This document shows, one piece after another, positions 1 through 24,741 of a stretch of 32,000 nt of DNA. The stretch comes from Dickeya solani IPO 2222. GTDB taxonomy: Bacteria > Pseudomonadota > Gammaproteobacteria > Enterobacterales > Enterobacteriaceae. Under the pieces are notes generated by a model. It saw only the letters and a program-made list of their open reading frames with translations, searched no databases and was not told the DNA's origin. The position numbers and the translations under genes were made by a program. The number at the start of each line of letters is the position of its first letter. The stretch's first letter is position 1. The stretch is from positions 1,230,001 to 1,262,000 of the forward strand of contig NZ_CP015137.1 of NCBI RefSeq assembly GCF_001644705.1, read 5' to 3'.

Positions 1-968
1 AACTGCAACGCCGTCAGGATCATCAGCACCAGCCCCATCAGCACCGACGCCGCCGACGCCAGCCCGTACTGCGACGCGTTGGACGAAAACGCGGTCTGAT
101 AGATGTACTGCACAATAAAGTTGTTGGCGGTGCCCGGTCCGCCACCGTTGGTCAGCACCCAGGCTTCGTCGAAAATCTGCACGCTGTTGATGGTCAGCAG
201 GATCACCACCACCAGAATGTTGGGCGCCAGCAACGGCAACGTCAGGCGATAGAAACCGCGCCAGCGCGAGGTGCCGTCCACCGCCGCCGCTTCGTAGATA
301 TCACGCGGGATCGCCTGCAACCCGGCCAGCAGAATCAGGGTATAAAAACCGACGTGAAACCACACCGACACGAACACCACCCAGAAGCGCGCCAGCGACG
401 GCTCCAGCAAAAACGTGACAGGCTGGCCACCCAGCGACGATAGCATCAGATTCAGCAGCCCGTTGCGGTTAAGGAACCACTGCCACACCAACCCGACCAC
501 CACCGGCGACAGCAGCACCGGGTAGAAAAAGATGGCGCGGAAGAAACCGCGGGCGATGATCTTGCGGTTGAGGATCAGCGCGGTGACCAGCGCCACGCCG
601 AGCGTGCACGTCACGTTAAAAAAAGTGAACGAGACGGTGTTGTAGACGCCGGTCCAGAACAGGTCCTGCTCGCAGGTGGCGGGCACCGTGTACTGCTCGC
701 AACTCAGCAGGGTAGTGAAGTTCTGCAACCCGACGTATGGCCGGTCCCACAGCAGGATGTTGGTGCCGCCGGTGAAGGCGTAGCACACCGCCAGCAGGAT
801 CGGAATAAACACGAACACGGCGAACAGCAGCATGTTCGGCGCGATGAAAAACCACGGCATCACCCGGCGGCCGCCGAATTTTTGCAGCAGATTGACCGAT
901 TTTTCCACCGGCGTCACCAGCGTATCCACCAGCGACGCGCCGGGCTGAATCAACGATTTTCGATTCAT
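1..968 (-). CDS. Carbohydrate ABC transporter permease, MalF/UgpA type (N-terminal part; gene runs off the left edge)
   Basis: Absent from the ORF track because it is open at the window edge. My reverse-strand translation from ATG 968-966 gives MNRKSLIQPGASLVDTLVTPVEKSVNLLQKFGGRRVMPWFFIAPNMLLFAVFVFIPILLAV... It is hydrophobic throughout and has the EAA-loop signature of binding-protein-dependent permeases (DIYEAAAVDGTSRWRGFYRLTLPLLAP). It lies on the same strand directly downstream of the ATPase gene. Confidence 0.85.
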   Translation of the reverse strand, partial: MNRKSLIQPGASLVDTLVTPVEKSVNLLQKFGGRRVMPWFFIAPNMLLFAVFVFIPILLAVCYAFTGGTNILLWDRPYVGLQNFTTLLSCEQYTVPATCEQDLFWTGVYNTVSFTFFNVTCTLGVALVTALILNRKIIARGFFRAIFFYPVLLSPVVVGLVWQWFLNRNGLLNLMLSSLGGQPVTFLLEPSLARFWVVFVSVWFHVGFYTLILLAGLQAIPRDIYEAAAVDGTSRWRGFYRLTLPLLAPNILVVVILLTINSVQIFDEAWVLTNGGGPGTANNFIVQYIYQTAFSSNASQYGLASAASVLMGLVLMILTALQ

Positions 969-1049
969 GTTCGTCTCCTGATCATGTTCGTCTCCTGATC
1001 ATGTTCGTCTCCTGATCATGGTTGTCTCCTGATCATGTTCATCTCCCGC
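966..1049 (-). repeat. 17-bp tandem repeat (about 4 full copies plus a degenerate copy), each unit carrying a Shine-Dalgarno sequence and an ATG
   Basis: The plus strand reads catgttcgtctcctgat x3 (966-1016), then catggttgtctcctgat, then catgttcatctcccgc. On the coding (minus) strand the unit is ATGATCAGGAGACGAAC. It fills the whole ATPase-permease intergenic gap. Confidence 0.95.
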
Positions 1050-1051
1050 AA

Positions 1052-2152
1052 TCAGGCTTTCTGTTCCGCCAGACGCGGCAGCGCCTGACCGCTGTCGGCA
1101 TCAAACAGGTGGCAATAGTCTTGCGGGAAGCGGACAAACACCAGCTCGCCGGTGCGGAATTCGTGGTGTCCCGGCAGGTGCACGATCAGCTCGTCGTCGA
1201 TGCCGGCGCAGCGTCCATAGATAAAGGTTTCGTGCCCCATCATTTCGCAGCGGTCGATGCACAGCGACACGCCGTCGTCATGCTCGCTCACCAGTTGACA
1301 GTGCGAGGGACGAATGCCCAGTTCCACCGTTTTCCCCTCTTCGCCGCGAAACGGCAGCCGCAACAGGTTGCCGGATGGGCAGCGGACGTCCACCCCGTCA
1401 TCCGACGCGCTGCTGATGGTGGCGGGGAACATATTCATACGCGGCGAACCGATAAAACCGGCCACAAACTTGTTTTTCGGCCGGTTGAACAGCTCCAGCG
1501 GCGTGCCCACCTGTTCGATGCGTCCGCCGTTGAGCACCACGATGCGCTGGGCCATGGTCATCGCCTCCACCTGATCGTGGGTGACGTAAATCATGGTGGT
1601 GCGCAGCTTCTGGTGCAGCCGGGTCAGCTCGCCGCGGGTCTGTACCCGCAGCTTGGCGTCAAGGTTGGACAGCGGCTCGTCAAACAGGAACAGGTCCGGG
1701 TCGCGCACGATGGCGCGGCCGATGGCGACGCGCTGCTGTTGCCCGCCGGACAGCGCCCGCGGCTTGCGTTCCAGATACGGTTCCAGCCCCAGCATGCGCG
1801 CGGCGTCCCCGATGCGCCGTTCAATTTCGTCTTTGGGGAAATGCAGGTTTTCCAGCCCGAACGCCAGATTCTTGCGCACCGACAGGTGCGGATAGAGCGC
1901 GTAGGACTGGAACACCATGGCGATTTTGCGCTCCGCCGGGCCAAGATCGTTGACCTTGCGATCGCCGATCCACAGCTCTCCGTCGGTGATCGGCTCCAGA
2001 CCGGCGATCATCCGCAACAGCGTGGATTTACCGCAGCCGGACGGCCCGACGAACACCATGAACTCCCCGTCGCGGATGATCAGATCCACGCCTTTGATAA
2101 TCTGTATCGACCCATAGCTTTTATGGACGTTTTTCAGTTCCAGACTCGCCAT
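1052..2152 (-). CDS. Sugar ABC transporter ATP-binding protein (MalK/UgpC/MsiK family)
   Basis: Walker [10 protein letters not shown], signature [14 protein letters not shown] and Walker B LFLFDEP are present, with a C-terminal MalK-type regulatory domain. The track ORF starts at GTG 2155. ATG 2152 has GAGGA 7 nt upstream and is the more likely start ([14 protein letters not shown]...). Confidence 0.9.
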
Positions 2153-2167
2153 CACCGTTTCCTCAAC

Positions 2168-2204
2168 CTGTTTCTGTTTTCAAACCCGTTTCTGTTTTTC
2201 AAAC
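2168..2204. repeat. Tandem duplication (18 + 19 bp) at the hydrolase-ATPase junction
   Basis: ctgtttctgttttcaaac (2168-2185) is followed directly by ccgtttctgtttttcaaac (2186-2204). The second copy contains the stop codon (2199-2201) of the upstream hydrolase gene. Confidence 0.85.
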
Positions 2205-3312: not shown

Positions 3313-5793
3313 TTACCGATCCTCCTCGGTACGCTCAGGTATCACCGATACCGTGTCGGGAAATGCGAAGGGGTGATGATTGACGGCGAAACCGCTCGCC
3401 GGATGCCAGTCCATCAGGCCGTAGTCCGGGTCGTCGAACTGCGCCGCGCCGTCATCCGACCGCTGCGCCTGACGGTGGCGGAAGCGTTCGATAAACGCCG
3501 GGAAATCCGCCGCGCCCTGCCCGCTGTCCACCGCGATATACCAGACGTTATGCTCGCCGAAGGCGCGCAATTCGCTGTCCGGCTGCCCGCCGTCCGGGGT
3601 GTGGGTTTGCAGCCCGGCCGGGTTGTGCAACGCGGCATAGCCGTTGCCGCCGCGCACGAAACACCAGTGCGTCTCCACCACCACCTCGTCCAGCGCGGTA
3701 CGCGGCAGGTAAAGGTGGGTCCAGCGACGCAGGTCGTGCTGCAAATCGAAAATCATCCAGGCGCGGTTGCGATGCTGCATCACGTGCGGCAGGCGGCCGT
3801 TGCCGGCCCAGTAGGACGGGCGGTGCACGCCGTCCGGGCGATCTTCGCCGGGATGGTTGACCCACAGCCGGGCGGCGTAGTGGCGGCCGAGGCGGATATC
3901 CAGCACATGCTGCTGGTGTCCCGGCTGGCCGGGGTGGTGATCGAACACCGAGGAAAACGCCACGTCCGGCTGTTTCCAGGCGATGACGCGGGCGCTACGG
4001 TTCAGCCCCTGTACCCAGCGCGCCTGCGCCCCTTGCGGTGACTGCCAGTGGGCGATGGCGTACGTCTCTTCAGGCGGCTGGTACTGGCTCAGGCACAGCA
4101 ACGGCAGCGCCGCACAGTGCGGGATCAGCCAGCCCTCGCCCCAAATCAGCGCGCACAGGCCGGACAGTTCGGTCAGCATGCCGGAGCGCAGTTCCTTGTC
4201 GTAAGCGCGCCCCATGGTGCCAACCGCCACACCGTTCTGGTGCACCCAGGCGGTCATTAGCAGAATACGGTCGATAACCGTGCGGGCGCGTTCGCGCAGG
4301 CTTTCATCACTAGCCAGCTCGGCCAGCGCCACCAGCCCGATCAGATCGATGGGGTAATAGGCGGCGGAGTTCCACTCCACCAGCCCGTGTTCCAGAATGG
4401 CGTCGAACCAGCGCTCCAGCCGCTGGCGGGCGATAGCCTGCTGCTCGCGGCCCTGACGACCGCTGCACACGAAGACCGAATCGGGAAAGTTTTGCCCGGC
4501 CAGATACTGCGCCACATGGAAACAGAGGCAGTGGTTCTCGCTCCAGAACCACATGGTGTCGTTGCCCGGCTCATCGATCCAGTAACGAAAACCGAGGATC
4601 ACGCTGCGAACGCGCCGCCAGTCATGGGCCGTCAGCCGCTGGCCCTGATAGCGCTGCCACAGCCAGATCAGCGGCACCAGTTGAAAGTCGGCGCAGTCTT
4701 CCCGACGGCTGATCTTGTGCAGCGCCTGATTGAGGCTCGGCATGATGTTCGCCGTCCCTTCGCCGGTGGCGAAGATAGCCAGCACCCGGCCGATGCGCTC
4801 GAAACCGTGCAACGCGGTGTGGCGCAGCAGGTAGTCGCGCCGGGCGGCCAGCGTCGACAGCGACGGCATGGCTTGTGTGGACATAGTTTGCGCAGGCAGG
4901 CGGCCGAAACTGATGCTGCGCGTCAGGGTGATGCCGTCGCACACCGCGCGGCAGACCAGATCGTAATACCCCACCAACCCCGCCGGCAGCGCCACCGGCC
5001 AGCCGGTATTGCCCGCCGCCAGCGGCGATTGTTGCCGCCAGGACGGCGCCGATTCGTTAACGTTGCACACCAGATGGTGATGGATATCGACCGCTTCCGG
5101 CAACGGCGTGGCGGCGCGCAGGGTCAGGGTATCGTGGTCAATCAGGTTGTCGGCCAGCGACAGGCTGTTGATCCAGCCGTCCAGCGCCTGGATGCGTTCG
5201 CTGCAGGCGGCGTCCGGCGCGGCCTGCCAGCGCAGCGGCGTCTCACCAAGGTAACGCAGGCTGAACAGGTAGTCGGTATCGCGTTCACACAATTCCTCGG
5301 CATGCACCACCAGCGTGTTTAACCCCAGTTGCAGCGGCAGCGTCAGTTCGCACTGCTGTTCGGTGTTACGGCTAAACGGGGTGAAACGGCAGATCTGACG
5401 ACCATTAAGCCAAACGGTTACGCCGCCGCAGGTAGACAGCAGGAAACGCGCCGGTTGCAGGCTATCGCTGTGCAGATAGCAGCGGGCGAAGCGTTGCACA
5501 TGGGTGGGGCAAGGCCAGAAATCGCTGAAATTGACCGACTGGCTGTCATCGCCGCCGCTCCACAGGGTGTGAAAACGGCGATGCTCCGGCAGGCTGACGG
5601 CGCGCAGCGCGGTTTCTTGCAAGAACCGCACCCGACAAGGCAAGACGCCGACATCCACAAAGCCATTAATAAAGCGGTAATTAACATTATCCGGCAAGGT
5701 ATCCGCTTCTGCAGGATAATATTTTTCCTCCAGATCGCTAATCATAAACCGGTTAATCACGCTATTTTTCTTTAACACCCAACCGATATTCAT
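3313..5793 (-). CDS. Large cytoplasmic heparinase II/III-like (polysaccharide/oligosaccharide lyase-fold) protein, function unknown
   Basis: 826 aa, with AAGGA 6 nt before ATG 5793 and no signal peptide. The central region (WFWSENHCLCFHVAQYL..., WNSAAYYPIDL) looks like an alpha/alpha toroid. The C-terminal region contains GHQQHVLDIRLG, which resembles the GHxHxD motif of the heparinase II/III C-terminal beta-sandwich domain. There is an extra N-terminal domain of about 200 aa. The assignment rests on by-eye motifs only. Confidence 0.55.
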   Translation of the reverse strand: MNIGWVLKKNSVINRFMISDLEEKYYPAEADTLPDNVNYRFINGFVDVGVLPCRVRFLQETALRAVSLPEHRRFHTLWSGGDDSQSVNFSDFWPCPTHVQRFARCYLHSDSLQPARFLLSTCGGVTVWLNGRQICRFTPFSRNTEQQCELTLPLQLGLNTLVVHAEELCERDTDYLFSLRYLGETPLRWQAAPDAACSERIQALDGWINSLSLADNLIDHDTLTLRAATPLPEAVDIHHHLVCNVNESAPSWRQQSPLAAGNTGWPVALPAGLVGYYDLVCRAVCDGITLTRSISFGRLPAQTMSTQAMPSLSTLAARRDYLLRHTALHGFERIGRVLAIFATGEGTANIMPSLNQALHKISRREDCADFQLVPLIWLWQRYQGQRLTAHDWRRVRSVILGFRYWIDEPGNDTMWFWSENHCLCFHVAQYLAGQNFPDSVFVCSGRQGREQQAIARQRLERWFDAILEHGLVEWNSAAYYPIDLIGLVALAELASDESLRERARTVIDRILLMTAWVHQNGVAVGTMGRAYDKELRSGMLTELSGLCALIWGEGWLIPHCAALPLLCLSQYQPPEETYAIAHWQSPQGAQARWVQGLNRSARVIAWKQPDVAFSSVFDHHPGQPGHQQHVLDIRLGRHYAARLWVNHPGEDRPDGVHRPSYWAGNGRLPHVMQHRNRAWMIFDLQHDLRRWTHLYLPRTALDEVVVETHWCFVRGGNGYAALHNPAGLQTHTPDGGQPDSELRAFGEHNVWYIAVDSGQGAADFPAFIERFRHRQAQRSDDGAAQFDDPDYGLMDWHPASGFAVNHHPFAFPDTVSVIPERTEEDR

Positions 5794-6182: not shown

Positions 6183-6283
6183 CATGCATCAGGAGCCGTC
6201 GAATATACCCGGAGTAATAAAGCCAACGCGCCTGAAACTTGAAGTATGACGGGTATATATATACATATGGGTGGGAGAGTAGA

Positions 6284-7594
6284 ATGAATCGCTATCAGCA
6301 CGCGCTGTTATTTTCCTTTATGACGCTGGGCGCTTTCGCCAGCAGCAATGCCATTGCCGCCAAAACGCAAATCACCTTTTTATACAGCGACGACGACCCG
6401 GAACTGGTCCATTTCATGGAACAGAAGGTGAAGACGTTTTCACAAAACAACGATCACATCGACGTGAATTTCGTCAGCACCGGCTACAACGCACTGCAAA
6501 CCCAGTTGCCGATGCAATTGGCCGCCGGTCTGGGGCCGGATATCGCCAAAACCACCCAGATGGGCCTGCTCTCCTACACGCTCGACCTGCGCCCTTATCT
6601 GGCCGATCCGGCCGGTTTCGAAAAACGCTACGGTGCCAGTATTGAAAAAATCATGCGCATCAACGGGGTACACAAGGATAACGCCCTGCCGGGCTTCGTC
6701 GCCTCCTGGACCGCCGACCTGCCGTTCGTCAACGTAACCCTGTTCCAGCAGGCCGGCGTGCCGCTGCCGCAACCGGGTTACACTCTGGAACAGCTGATGC
6801 AGGCGTCGAAACAGGTGGCGGCAAAAACCGGCGTTGCCATTCCCTTCACCATCGACCGCAGCGGTTTTCGCTTCTCCGGCCCGGCCTACTCCTACGGCAC
6901 CCGCTACGACAAAGACGGTCTGATCAACTTCCCGGACGCCGCCGCGCAGGCGTGGATCAAAGACCTGAAACGCTGGTCGGACGATGGCATCTTCCCGCGT
7001 GAAATGTGGGGTGCCGCCGGCGGCGGTCAGTACAAGAGCATGGCCGACGACTTTGTGAACGGCAACATCGTCACCTACTTCTCCGGCAACTGGCAGTTGA
7101 ACCAGTTCAGCAAGCAGATCGGCAACGGTTTCGACTGGAAAATGCTGCCCGCGCCCTGCAAGGAAAAATGCATCTCGATGGGCGGCGCCACCTTTATCAT
7201 GCCGTTCAAGACCAGCAAGCATCCGAAAGAAGTGGCGGAATTCATGGAATGGCTGGGCAGCGACGCCATCCAGCGTGAGATCGCCGAACACTTCAATATC
7301 ATCGTCGGTGCCGATATTCCGGATCTGCATTACCAGACCAAGGATCAGCACGTGATCGACGGGTTGAACACCGCCCGCGCCGAGATCGCTAAAATTCCAG
7401 CCTACGTGTTCGACTGGGAAAAAATGGAAAGTCTGGGCGGCAGCGAGCTGTATCCGATCATCCTGACCCGCTTTACCCAGTACCTGAACAATCAGGTGTC
7501 GTATGACGAGTATCTGCGCCTGACGGAAAACGACGTGAAACGGCTTAACCAGATCATCGCCGCCAACCGGCAGCAACAGCAGAAAGCCCAGTAA
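6284..7594 (+). CDS. Carbohydrate ABC transporter periplasmic solute-binding protein (family 1)
   Basis: The track ORF begins at TTG 6239. ATG 6284 is preceded by GGGAGAG and gives a clear signal peptide, MNRYQHALLFSFMTLGAFASSNAIA-AK. The length and composition are typical of a family 1 solute-binding protein. Confidence 0.85.
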   Translation: MNRYQHALLFSFMTLGAFASSNAIAAKTQITFLYSDDDPELVHFMEQKVKTFSQNNDHIDVNFVSTGYNALQTQLPMQLAAGLGPDIAKTTQMGLLSYTLDLRPYLADPAGFEKRYGASIEKIMRINGVHKDNALPGFVASWTADLPFVNVTLFQQAGVPLPQPGYTLEQLMQASKQVAAKTGVAIPFTIDRSGFRFSGPAYSYGTRYDKDGLINFPDAAAQAWIKDLKRWSDDGIFPREMWGAAGGGQYKSMADDFVNGNIVTYFSGNWQLNQFSKQIGNGFDWKMLPAPCKEKCISMGGATFIMPFKTSKHPKEVAEFMEWLGSDAIQREIAEHFNIIVGADIPDLHYQTKDQHVIDGLNTARAEIAKIPAYVFDWEKMESLGGSELYPIILTRFTQYLNNQVSYDEYLRLTENDVKRLNQIIAANRQQQQKAQ

Positions 7595-7618
7595 CGAAGG
7601 AGTCAGTAACGGAGGAGT
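7591..7618 (+). repeat. Two-copy tandem duplication of a stop/SD segment (GTAACGAAGGAGT / GTAACGGAGGAGT, 15-bp period)
   Basis: The sequence is gtaacgaaggagtca gtaacggaggagtat followed by ATG 7619. The first copy contains the binding-protein stop codon TAA (7592-7594), and both copies carry GGAG. Confidence 0.8.
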
Positions 7619-14601: not shown

Positions 14602-15099
14602 TCAACCAAAACGCGCCAGTTCCCGGTCGAAATCCAGCGGCTGAATGCCCTGTTGGTCGCGGTCCGCGTCCGTCAGTTGGTCGGCGGGAATAAACCAGGT
14701 TACCTCAAACAGCAGGCCGTCCGGGTCGTGGCCGTACACGCTCTTGTGTACGCCGTGATCTTCCTCCAGTCCCAAGCGCCCGTCTTGCGCCAGCCGATCA
14801 CGAATCCGCTTCAGTTCCTGCAACGTATCCACTTCCCACGCCAGATGGTACAGCCCCGCCGGCGGCTCGTGTTCGCCGGGCTGCTCGCCGCGGGCGCGAA
14901 ACACGCCGGCCCGCTGCTGGCCGAGATTTTTGGCGAACAATGCCAGATCGTGATCGTTATCCGATTCCGCCGCCTGGGTAAACACAGCCTGACTGCCGCC
15001 CGGTTTGGGGCGAAATCCCAGAGTATCACGGTAGAATGCGGTGCTTTTCTCCACGTCGGACACATACAGCACCGCGTGATTCAGGCGGGTAATCCCCAT
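14602..15099 (-). CDS. VOC-family protein (glyoxalase/bleomycin-resistance/extradiol dioxygenase fold)
   Basis: MGITRLNHAVLYVSDVEKSTAFYRDTLGF... is a typical VOC N-terminus, and LYHLAWEV belongs to the second beta-alpha-beta-beta-beta module. ATG 15099 has AGGAG 6 nt upstream. The track start at 15198 adds an implausible extension. Confidence 0.8.
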   Translation of the reverse strand: MGITRLNHAVLYVSDVEKSTAFYRDTLGFRPKPGGSQAVFTQAAESDNDHDLALFAKNLGQQRAGVFRARGEQPGEHEPPAGLYHLAWEVDTLQELKRIRDRLAQDGRLGLEEDHGVHKSVYGHDPDGLLFEVTWFIPADQLTDADRDQQGIQPLDFDRELARFG

Positions 15100-15230
15100 A
15101 GTCATCTCCTGGTGGCCTGATGGCGTAAGCTGCCATCCTGACACACAACGACCGCGGGATATATGCCGATTTCCGGCAACCAAAGTCGCCGCACGCATGA
15201 ACCGGTGGCCATCGAAACGGGAAAGAAAAC

Positions 15231-15278
15231 GAAGGGAAAAGAAAGCGAAGGGAAAAGCGCGTGAAGGGAAGGCCGCCG
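15231..15278. repeat. Three-copy 16-bp purine-rich tandem repeat (GAAGGGAAAAG core)
   Basis: gaagggaaaag occurs at 15231 and 15247, and gaagggaagg at 15263. On the minus strand this forms a CT-rich tract directly after the DeoR-gene hairpin. Confidence 0.7.
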
Positions 15279-15289
15279 ATCAGCGGCCT
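15270..15289 (-). terminator. Hairpin overlapping the DeoR stop codon, followed on the minus strand by a T/C-rich tract
   Basis: aggccgc-cgatca-gcggcct forms a 7-bp stem with the stop codon TGA (15282-15280) in the loop. Downstream on the minus strand is TTCCCTTCACGCGCTTTTCCCTTCGCTTTCTTTTCCC. Confidence 0.45.
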
Positions 15290-16050
15290 GCACTCACCAG
15301 TTGCAGATTGAACGGCTGCGCCCGAAGCTGACGCTCCACCTCCGGCGGCAAACTGCTGTCGGTGATGATATCGGTCAGTTCAGACAACGGCGAGACGCAA
15401 AACAGCGAGTAAGCACCGTATTTGCTGCTGTCGGCCAGCAACACCCGGCGGCTGGCGTTAACGCCTAAATCCTGCTTGATACCCGACTTTTCTTCAGTGG
15501 GGGTGGTGATACCCTTCTCCAGGCTCCAGGAGTTACAACTGATAAAGGCGATGTCCGGGTAGACGCTGCGCAGCAAACGACGACCGTGTTCGCCGATGCA
15601 GGACTGGCTGCTGTCGTCGATACGACCGCCGATGATCGTCACTTCGATCTGCTTGAACTCGGAGAGAAACAGCGCGATCTGCAAGTCGGCGGTGATCACC
15701 CGCAGCGGCAGATGAGTCAGGTTGCGCGCCAGCTCCATCATGGTGGTACCGGCGTCCAGCACCACCGCGTTGCCGGGCTGCACCAGCGACGCCGCATACC
15801 GCGCAATAGCCTGTTTTTCCGACAGATTGCGCTGCAACTTTTCATTGGTGGTCGGCTGGGAAGGGATAAAGCGGTTGAGCGTCACCCCGCCGTGGCTACG
15901 GCTGATGACGCCCTGCTCGTCCAGCTTGATCAAATCGCGGCGAATCGTCGCCGGGGACGCATCAATGACTGTCACTAGTTCATCCACCGTCACCAGATTA
16001 TGGCTTTTCAGATAATCCAGAATCTGATCGAGACGGCTTTGTCCTTTCAC
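15280..16050 (-). CDS. DeoR-family transcriptional regulator
   Basis: N-terminal winged HTH ([50 protein letters not shown]) and a C-terminal DeoR sugar-phosphate sensor domain. I prefer GTG 16050 (GGAGAA 4 nt upstream). The longest ORF starts at TTG 16083. Confidence 0.85.
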
Positions 16051-16131
16051 TCGTTCTCCATTTACACGCAACGTATCAGTCAATGTGTGTGCCCCACGAC
16101 GTATTCAACGGTTCCATACTCTGCGATTCTA

Positions 16132-23968: not shown

Positions 23969-24652
23969 ATGTCAGGACAAAAACAGGCAGTGATCACCGG
24001 CAGCAGCTCCGGCATCGGCGCCGCCATTACCGCCACCCTGCTGGCGGCGGGCTGGAAGGTTGTCGGGCTATCGCGTCAGCCGGGCGCGCATCAGCACCCG
24101 AACTTTACGCATCACCCGCTGGATATCACCGATACACCGGAGCTTATCGCGTTGCTGGACAGCCTGCCCGCCGTCGATGCGGTGATTCACGCCGCCGGGG
24201 TGATGAAAGCCGCAACGCTGGGCTCGCTGTCATACGCCGACAGCGAGCAACTGTGGAAGCTGCATATTCAGGTCGCCGAAGTGCTGGCCGACCGGCTGGT
24301 GGACAAACTGCCGCAGGGCGGCCGCATCGTCCTGCTGGGTAGCCGCACATCCAGCGGCGCTGCCGGGCGTAGCCAGTACGTCGCCACCAAGTCGGCGATG
24401 ATCGGCATGGTGAGAAGCTGGGCGGCGGAACTGGCGCCGCGCGGCATTACCGTCAATATCGTAGCACCAGGCGCCACCGAAACGCCGATGCTGAATCAGC
24501 CAGGGCGGCAAAGCTCGCCGCCGAAACTGCCGCCGATCGGTCGGTTTATCCAGCCGCAGGAAGTGGCGGATCTGGTGGCGTACCTGTTGTCGCCTTCAGC
24601 GGCGGCCATCACCGGACAACAACTGGTGATCTGCGGCGGCGCCTCGTTATAG
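23969..24652 (+). CDS. Short-chain dehydrogenase/reductase (classical SDR)
   Basis: Cofactor motif TGSSSGIG, catalytic motif YVATK (YxxxK), and NIVAPG. 227 aa. Confidence 0.85.
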   Translation: MSGQKQAVITGSSSGIGAAITATLLAAGWKVVGLSRQPGAHQHPNFTHHPLDITDTPELIALLDSLPAVDAVIHAAGVMKAATLGSLSYADSEQLWKLHIQVAEVLADRLVDKLPQGGRIVLLGSRTSSGAAGRSQYVATKSAMIGMVRSWAAELAPRGITVNIVAPGATETPMLNQPGRQSSPPKLPPIGRFIQPQEVADLVAYLLSPSAAAITGQQLVICGGASL

Positions 24653-24741
24653 CGATATCTTGTTATAGCTATATTTCGTTATAACTACATCTCGTTATAG
24701 CGACATCATGATAATCGCGACACCATGATAGTCACGGTCAG
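24645..24741. repeat. Iteron-like tandem array, 16-17-bp period, about 6 copies (4 good and 2 degenerate)
   Basis: The copies are cgttatagcgatatct, tgttatagctatattt, cgttataactacatct, cgttatagcgacatca, tgataatcgcgacacca and tgatagtcacggtcag. The first copy contains the SDR stop codon. The array ends just before the predicted TerC-gene promoter and contains the 10-bp palindrome TATAGCTATA (24664-24673). Confidence 0.85.

Follow-up and report, generated by a model that had tools for sequence, protein, structure and literature searches.

The ATPase-permease junction of Dickeya solani IPO 2222

We analysed a stretch of 32,000 nucleotides (nt) of the Dickeya solani IPO 2222 genome (RefSeq assembly GCF_001644705.1, contig NZ_CP015137.1, positions 1,230,001 to 1,262,000 of the forward strand), referred to here as the window. 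On its minus strand, the spacer between the ATPase gene and the first permease gene of an ATP-binding cassette (ABC) transporter is filled by a tandem array in which each unit carries a Shine-Dalgarno sequence (SD) and an ATG. The spacer, from the ATPase stop (1054-1052) to the permease ATG (968-966), measures 83 nt and comprises a lead SD module followed by four 17-nt units. The junction contains the following features, ordered along the minus strand:

1052..2152, minus strand: ABC transporter ATPase gene, MalK/UgpC-like, 366 amino acids (aa), from the list of open reading frames (ORFs), with Pfam domains ABC_tran, OB_MalK and TOBE_2
1037..1051, minus strand: lead module TTGCGGGAGATGAAC, from direct reading of the sequence
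1020..1036, minus strand: repeat unit 1, ATGATCAGGAGACAACC; mini-ORF 1, MIRRQP, at 1036-1016
1003..1019, minus strand: repeat unit 2, ATGATCAGGAGACGAAC; mini-ORF 2, MIRRRT, at 1019-999
986..1002, minus strand: repeat unit 3, ATGATCAGGAGACGAAC; mini-ORF 3, MIRRRT, at 1002-982
969..985, minus strand: repeat unit 4, ATGATCAGGAGACGAAC; mini-ORF 4, MIRRRT, at 985-965, its TGA overlapping the permease ATG
1..968, minus strand: ABC permease 1 gene, BPD_transp_1, with ATG at 968-966, cut by the window edge (333 aa in relatives)

The ATPase protein has an exact match annotated as a D. solani ABC ATP-binding protein, and the GH88 protein of the window is likewise identical to a protein annotated as D. 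solani. Permease 1 is 98% identical to the D. dadantii sugar ABC permease P0001, and the gene calls of a second D. solani assembly (locus L001) use the same ATG.

Read along the minus strand, the junction runs from the TGA (1054-1052) through TTGCGGGAGATGAAC, ATGATCAGGAGACAACC and three copies of ATGATCAGGAGACGAAC to ATGAATCG, which opens with the permease ATG. The generic unit is a 13-mer core, ATGATCAGGAGAC, followed by AACC or GAAC. Tandem Repeats Finder (TRF) reported the region 965-1046 with a period of 17, 4.8 copies, 92% matches and a score of 143, the highest of all arrays in the window. The spacer and its 17-bp repeat are therefore as described in an earlier note on this DNA, made from the letters alone. 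That note had also proposed to look for the 17-mer at other loci. Within the window, four occurrences with at most three mismatches were found, all of them in the array, against 0.05 expected from shuffles, and the 13-mer core is confined to this junction among all 293 fetched loci. The head-to-tail copies that define a variable-number tandem repeat (VNTR) are thus present beyond chance, as judged by both the TRF score and the four matches.

Translation also bears out the chain of stop-start-overlapping ORFs that had been noticed. MIRRQP is read from ATG 1036 (MNMIRRQP from ATG 1042), and is followed by MIRRRT from each of the ATGs 1019, 1002 and 985. From ATG 1036 on, every mini-ORF has six codons and ends with a TGA lying inside the next ATGA, giving four ATGA junctions of which the last is the permease start. 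The co-directional overlap (ATGA or TGATG) that characterises termination-reinitiation coupling is thus found four times in a row, the coupling itself being predicted. An SD stands 5 nt ahead of each of these ATGs (AGGAGA, or GGGAGA in the lead), and the predicted SD:anti-SD duplex amounts to -7.4 kcal/mol for every module, the real ribosome-binding site (RBS) of the permease included. Indeed, the AGGAGA of repeat unit 4 is the predicted functional RBS of the permease.

The lead module deserves a separate word. Its SD, the first of the series (GGGAG, 1047-1043), serves ATG 1036. The module also holds an additional in-frame ATG (1042-1040), the product of a C to T change relative to GAGACGAAC. 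The statement that an SD precedes every ATG thus holds for the AGGAGA-type modules and fails for ATG 1042, the start of MNMIRRQP: there GGGAG abuts the start codon and the best predicted duplex reaches just -2.2 kcal/mol, so that the first start is better served at ATG 1036. This ATG lies 15 nt past the ATPase stop, and the stop-to-start distance of single-module species is 14-15 nt.

Initiation at the upstream ATGs would not extend the permease at its N-terminus: although ATG 1019 and ATG 968 share a frame, TGA 1001-999 closes it. The arginine codons of the mini-ORFs, AGG-AGA-CGA, are the three rarest arginine codons of the window genes (1.26, 0.92 and 1.26 per 1000, respectively; CGC stands at 28 per 1000), which is automatic, because AGGAGA-CGA happens to be read in frame. 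As a separate observation, each D. solani unit contains a GATC within the palindrome TGATCA (980-1034, minus strand), making four Dam sites at an exact spacing of 17 bp; this motif is missing from most units of two D. dianthicola alleles (L085 and L122).

Copy number across strains and species

Orthologous junctions were retrieved by exact-protein look-up, a procedure that merges strains with identical neighbouring proteins. The exact ATPase is present on 24 contigs (42 index blocks), among which the spacer was read in L001, the other 23 D. solani contigs being merged. The junctions compared are the following:

Pectobacterium (10 genomes): spacer of 23 nt, one SD, no repeat
D. zeae and D. oryzae: spacer of 14 nt, TTGCGGAGACAACC, one module
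D. fangzhongdai and D. undicola: spacer of 15 nt, TGGCAGGAGACAAGC, one module
D. dadantii (19 fetched loci, two ATPase variants): spacer of 28 nt, TTGCGACAGCC-ATAATCAGGAGACAGGC, one decayed extra unit
D. solani: spacers of 83 nt, 4 units (window and L001), and 66 nt, 3 units (L110 and L111)
D. dianthicola: spacers of 49 nt, 2 units (L122), 66 nt, 3 units (L084), and 100 nt, 5 units (L085)

Copy number therefore differs from strain to strain, as expected of a VNTR: 0, 1 (decayed), 2, 3, 4 or 5 units occur across Dickeya, and variation is found within species, with 3 or 4 units in D. solani and 2, 3 or 5 in D. dianthicola. The earlier note had suggested a copy-number variable tract and proposed a comparison across strains, with invariance as the outcome that would speak against it; once run, this comparison showed that copy number is not invariant. 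The 3-unit D. solani allele lacks one ATGATCAGGAGACGAAC copy, and which of the three identical copies is missing is not distinguishable. The extra unit of D. dadantii has its ATG changed to ATA and has lost the lead SD; it is identical in all 19 fetched loci, of which 18 are distinct (L116 repeats the contig of L082).

Strains with unequal copy number differ by just 0.6-1.0% in the flanking ATPase and permease DNA. In a neighbour-joining tree built from this flanking DNA, the single-module D. zeae/D. oryzae and Pectobacterium lie outside the species that carry the repeat. Since the outgroups have a single module and the flanks differ so little, the repeat is a derived feature restricted to the D. 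solani, D. dadantii and D. dianthicola group and variable in copy number over short evolutionary time. The alternative wording of the earlier note, a fossil of repeated junction duplication, fits as well, the outgroups having kept the single module.

Lineages differ in the unit that was amplified, namely ATGATCAGGAGACGAAC for D. solani, ATGATCAGGAGACAGAC for L084 and ATGAGCGGGAGACAGCC for L085. This difference implies that the array expanded in at least three independent events. All expanded alleles have an unbroken chain, in which the first upstream ATG lies 15 nt past the ATPase stop, the ORFs have six codons and an ATGA is found at each junction. Their SDs are usable, with predicted duplexes from -5.6 to -7.8 kcal/mol, the weakest (-5.6 kcal/mol) being the GAGAGA of some D. 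dianthicola units.

Two further observations were made on the single-module species. In D. fangzhongdai and D. undicola, the stop codon of the ATPase gene shares bases with an ATG in another frame, forming TGATG (L109, 3599-3603, and L123-L128; TGATGGCAGGAGAC...); this ATG opens a short ORF that spans the permease start and is not found in the other species. In the D. oryzae assemblies GCA_0545897xx/0545896xx (L098-L101), permease 1 is called as two pieces of 117 aa and 215 aa, and the GH88 gene or the LacI regulator is split too in some loci; these are frameshift pseudogenes or assembly errors in drafts.

Probable origin and tolerance of the array

The array is a real strain-variable repeat, and nothing shows that it is a dedicated regulatory device. 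The explanation that we favour, and consider probable, is that of a VNTR born from the permease's own initiation module, which would have been duplicated, then resized by slippage and tolerated in a near-neutral manner.

The starting state would have been that seen in D. fangzhongdai and D. undicola, TGA-TGGC-AGGAGACAAGC-ATGAAC. In the lineage of D. solani, D. dadantii and D. dianthicola, a 17-nt tandem duplication would have copied the SD, its 5-nt spacer, the ATG and codon 2. The allele alignment shows that the duplicated codon 2 carries an AAC to ATC change shared by the three species, which marks a common copy, and we infer that the architecture goes back to one duplication. Once two near-identical copies were present, replication slippage or unequal exchange may have grown and shrunk the array independently in each lineage.

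Two properties would make such an array tolerable. First, with an ATGA start and a period of 17 (3n+2), each upstream ATG yields a self-terminating six-codon ORF, so that initiation at these ATGs never enters the permease gene in a wrong frame; by the same geometry, a terminating ribosome would be set free right at the next ATG, which has an SD just ahead of it. The ATGA chain is thus an automatic consequence of this geometry and not a sign of design. Second, the terminal copy is an unaltered RBS.

Ribosomes arriving from the ATPase stop, or loaded at any internal SD, could be relayed by termination-reinitiation over the ATGA junctions to the permease start. In Escherichia coli, ATGA overlaps lead to tight termination-reinitiation coupling (PMC6728339), and a 38-nt untranslated gap lowers reinitiation by 80-100% (PMC10666635). 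On this basis, an inert spacer of 83 nt should break the coupling of the permease to the ATPase. We infer that the array can serve as a relay, a role that would explain, together with the intact terminal RBS, why it is tolerated.

The effect on permease output would probably be modest and could be of either sign. The codons AGG, AGA and CGA slow ribosomes in enterobacteria. While extra SDs and the relay could help, the steric competition of five equal SDs within 83 nt and the decoding of AGG-AGA-CGA are possible hindrances. When arrays of 0 to 6 units were modelled in silico, the energies needed to open the RBS were 13.2, 7.6, 10.6, 7.2, 8.6, 7.5 and 8.8 kcal/mol, with no monotonic trend; these values are model-dependent and are not used as evidence.

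Several points weigh against this explanation. The tree does not resolve the order of three groups, (D. solani, D. dadantii), D. dianthicola and (D. fangzhongdai, D. undicola), and one origin followed by loss, or two separate origins, would also be possible. Moreover, the ATGA and GAGA(C) positions are constant over all unit variants while positions 5, 7, 8 and 14-16 vary, and no expanded allele has lost any of its upstream ATGs, TGAs or SD cores. The constant positions could hint at selection on each upstream module. This constancy is nevertheless confounded by the recent common descent of the units and by selection on the terminal copy, and the weakened SD of some D. dianthicola units would count against selection.

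Similar repeats in the window and in other genomes

A second copy-variable tandem repeat lies at the neighbouring junction, between the GH88 gene and the ATPase gene:

2165..2204, minus strand: tandem repeat reported by TRF, with a unit of about 18-19 nt, GTTTGAAAAACAGAAACGG, in 2.2 copies

Its unit includes the GH88 stop codon. Pectobacterium has a GH88-ATPase spacer of 2 nt; in Dickeya, its length is 28, 46-48, 67 or 94 nt. At this same junction, L084 has three further copies of a separate 16-nt unit. In total, five tandem arrays with TRF scores of 53-143 lie at or beside gene ends in the 32 kb. As this neighbouring junction and the further repeats of the window are also at gene ends, the distribution points to a general mutational process which would be filtered by tolerance. 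The three remaining arrays are:

7589-7618, plus strand: two-copy 15-nt duplication of a last codon, stop and SD (CAGTAACGAAGGAGT / CAGTAACGGAGGAGT), between the solute-binding-protein gene (6239-7594) and ATG 7619 of a 182-aa ORF with no Pfam match
15222-15257: purine-rich 16-nt repeat AAAGAAAGCGAAGGGA, 2.2 copies, in the spacer between the minus-strand ORFs 15280-16083 and 14602-15198
24643-24707, plus strand: degenerate 16-nt repeat CTCGTTATAGCGACAT, 4.1 copies, 81% matches, starting in the final codons and TAG stop of ORF 23969-24652 and extending into the intergenic region

Duplications of this kind were also found in unrelated genomes. A metagenome scan for two GAGAC-N4-ATGA modules at a spacing of 17 nt returned 17 loci. 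In at least 7 of the 17 (L131, L132, L133, L135, L137, L140 and L141), the unspecified positions match too and the last ATG opens a long ORF. These arrays have two to three copies overall, with three modules in L132, L137 and L141, and the cases at 17 nt form the same six-codon ATGA-overlapping mini-ORFs. Examples lying directly ahead of long ORFs are:

L137, 2802-2831: metagenome SD+ATGA duplication
L132, 12201-12230: metagenome SD+ATGA duplication
L141, 1126-1155: metagenome SD+ATGA duplication
L277, 13514-13545: viral SD+ATGA duplication
L288, 8087-8121: viral SD+ATGA duplication

Fixed-period scans of viral sequences recovered two true SD+ATGA duplicates at period 16, one at 17, one at 19 and about three at 20. 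With counts too few, no bias towards 3n+2 is discernible among these viral duplicates, and the tolerance filter is neither supported nor refuted by them. A variable-gap viral scan for GGAG-N6-ATGA pairs was swamped by in-frame coding repeats with periods of 15, 18, 21 and 24. Judging from these loci, the tandem duplication of an RBS plus start module is a recurrent event in unrelated genomes, and what distinguishes the Dickeya array is its growth to 3-5 copies with allelic variation.

Alternative explanations

While a near-neutral, tolerated VNTR is most likely, a minority possibility, which we hold to be unlikely, is that of a selected translational rheostat similar to a contingency locus. 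Copy number would set the ratio of permease to ATPase synthesis, each added SD+ATG module either loading more ribosomes or multiplying an imperfect reinitiation step, and slippage would yield heritable expression variants. The within-species variation at no more than 1% flanking divergence and the three or more independent expansions would agree with this, as would the retention of all upstream ATGs, TGAs and usable SDs in each expanded allele and the avoidance of ATGA and GAGA by the variable unit positions; moreover, the genes encode subunits of one heteromeric complex, a class reportedly enriched for coupling (PMC10666635). However, intact signals are expected in young duplicates. In D. dadantii, the extra module is doubly inactivated, by the ATG to ATA change and the SD deletion, and this state is unchanged in the 19 fetched loci, while a single module serves this operon in four Dickeya species and in Pectobacterium. 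Finally, the GH88-ATPase junction varies equally although its repeat carries a stop codon and not an RBS, which suggests mutational pressure rather than design.

An ON/OFF switch by phase variation was considered and rejected: the permease ORF and the spacing between its proximal SD and ATG are identical in alleles with 0-5 units, and the spacer contains no promoter-like site.

A bolder combination, more speculative and likewise doubtful, would make the array a slippage-adjustable relay, in which copy number, possibly together with rare Arg-tRNAs or RsmA, sets the permease:ATPase ratio; the duplications found elsewhere would then represent an unrecognised class of evolvable intercistronic elements. 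If the relay operates in this way, expression of a plant-oligosaccharide importer would vary heritably and reversibly within Dickeya populations.

Among soft-rot Pectobacteriaceae, RsmA acts as a major regulator, and the array could be seen as a landing pad for RsmA/CsrA: five single-stranded GGA motifs (CAGGAGA) at a 17-nt spacing would be bridged by dimers that repress the permease, or the mRNA would titrate RsmA. For CsrA, the GGA must lie in single-stranded RNA, and a dimer can span two sites separated by 10-63 nt, the optimum being 18 nt (PMC3856055). The GGA every 17 nt is near this optimum and the array has no stable structure (folding z-score -1.56). [quoted passage not shown]

It is very improbable that the spacer is a structured RNA (riboswitch, small RNA or attenuator) or a repeated DNA-binding site in which SD and ATG are coincidental. 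The four GATC within TGATCA at 17-bp spacing in D. solani could suggest a DNA site, but they are missing from most units of L085 and L122; three consecutive very rare arginine codons, at about 1 per 1000 each, are reminiscent of leader-peptide sensors, but follow automatically from the in-frame AGGAGA-CGA. A search of the spacer against Rfam returned no match at E<=1, its folding is no better than that of shuffles (the same z-score of -1.56, frequency of the minimum free energy structure 0.016), and neither a terminator-like nor a promoter-like site was seen in it; with no Rfam match, no folding signal and no terminator, the leader-peptide attenuator was also rejected.

Lastly, a collapsed or expanded repeat that is absent from the organism is hardly credible: although short tandem repeats are sometimes mis-assembled, the independent NCBI assembly L001 carries the identical 83-nt spacer, which disposes of the artefact that the earlier note had named as a refutation, an ordered allelic series occurs in complete genomes (CP136339.1, CP162003.1 and CP051429.1) and in Logan re-assemblies, and an 83-nt array is presumably shorter than a typical sequencing read.

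Operon context

The minus-strand operon encodes, in order, an 826-aa protein, a GH88/105-type hydrolase, the MalK/UgpC-like ATPase, permease 1, permease 2 and a LacI-family regulator, and the solute-binding-protein gene is transcribed divergently. Judging by family names alone, the operon probably serves to import, through an ABC system, and to degrade an unsaturated plant oligosaccharide. The 826-aa protein (3313-5793, minus strand) is encoded directly upstream of GH88; it belongs to no Pfam family, and sequence comparison detects no relative of it in the PDB. Its position is conserved in Dickeya (821-836 aa) and Pectobacterium (820 aa), and the protein may be a so far uncharacterised enzyme of this cluster. 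When the region was compared with plasmids by megablast, only distant ugpC-like genes were found, so the array is not a plasmid-borne element. A search of genome contigs with the ATPase protein returned generic ABC ATPases only, with 48-68% identity and no Dickeya or Pectobacterium locus.

Comparison with known systems

In the literature searched, we came across no array of complete SD+ATG modules that varies in copy number and forms a series of ATGA-coupled mini-ORFs. The remark of the earlier note that no such device had been described thus stands for the ensemble and not for its ingredients, each of which is well known: VNTRs in Dickeya, termination-reinitiation coupling at ATGA, and leader cistrons with an embedded SD.

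The closest mechanistic relative is the termination-reinitiation coupling at ATGA (-4 nt) overlaps studied by Huber et al. 2019 (PMC6728339) and 2023 (PMC10666635). Each junction of the array is an ATGA overlap whose SD lies within the ORF upstream, which is how coupled gene pairs are most commonly arranged, and the gene products are subunits of a single heteromeric ABC transporter. It differs in that the upstream partners are four serial six-codon ORFs derived from duplication and not real genes, and in that the ATPase is not overlapped, its stop lying 15 nt before the first upstream ATG. The Dickeya alleles offer a natural series of 0-5 serial ATGA junctions with identical SDs, in which the reinitiation efficiency per junction could be measured in vivo.

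Synthetic bicistronic design (BCD) translation cassettes (10.1101/2023.02.09.527918) have a short leader ORF driven by SD1 with an embedded SD2 and a stop adjacent to or overlapping the next start. Each pair of units reproduces this leader-cistron arrangement, in sequence and in predicted duplexes (-7.4 kcal/mol). Unlike these cassettes, the array is natural and born of duplication, it has 2-5 iterations in series, and its leaders have only six codons, of rare kinds.

The array also shares with the CsrB/RsmB GGA arrays (PMC3856055) repeated single-stranded GGA motifs with a spacing compatible with bridging by CsrA dimers, but it lies inside an mRNA spacer, has no hairpin loops, matches the motif core only, and some alleles have units without GGA. 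The TAACTGA direct repeats of Beggiatoaceae, found upstream of start codons in 2-6 copies at 169 loci and suspected of translational regulation (MacGregor 2015, PMC4679880), are likewise tandem direct repeats immediately ahead of start codons; they are, however, a genome-wide heptamer with stop codons and no SD or ATG, whereas the Dickeya unit is a local RBS duplication at a single locus.

Like the contingency loci of bacterial pathogens, the array is a slippage-prone repeat beside a gene start, with heritable length variants. The repeat units of contingency loci are typically of 1-8 nt, against 17 nt here, and the number of units in the array shifts neither the permease frame nor a promoter spacing, so that at most a graded change is predicted. 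Should copy number alter permease output, this would be a new graded contingency locus acting at the level of translation in an operon of a plant pathogen.

Finally, VNTR loci in D. solani and D. dianthicola have been used for strain typing (Parkinson et al. 2014, as cited in PMC6127512). The array resembles these loci as a short tandem repeat whose copy number differs between strains of the two species, and could itself serve as a highly discriminating typing marker, in the near-clonal D. solani (3 or 4 units) as well as in D. dianthicola (2, 3 or 5). Its special feature is that the unit is a complete SD and start module placed at an intercistronic junction. Even if it is merely a tolerated product of slippage, the array represents a clean natural case of a gene-start duplication made harmless by frame geometry (ATGA, 3n+2).

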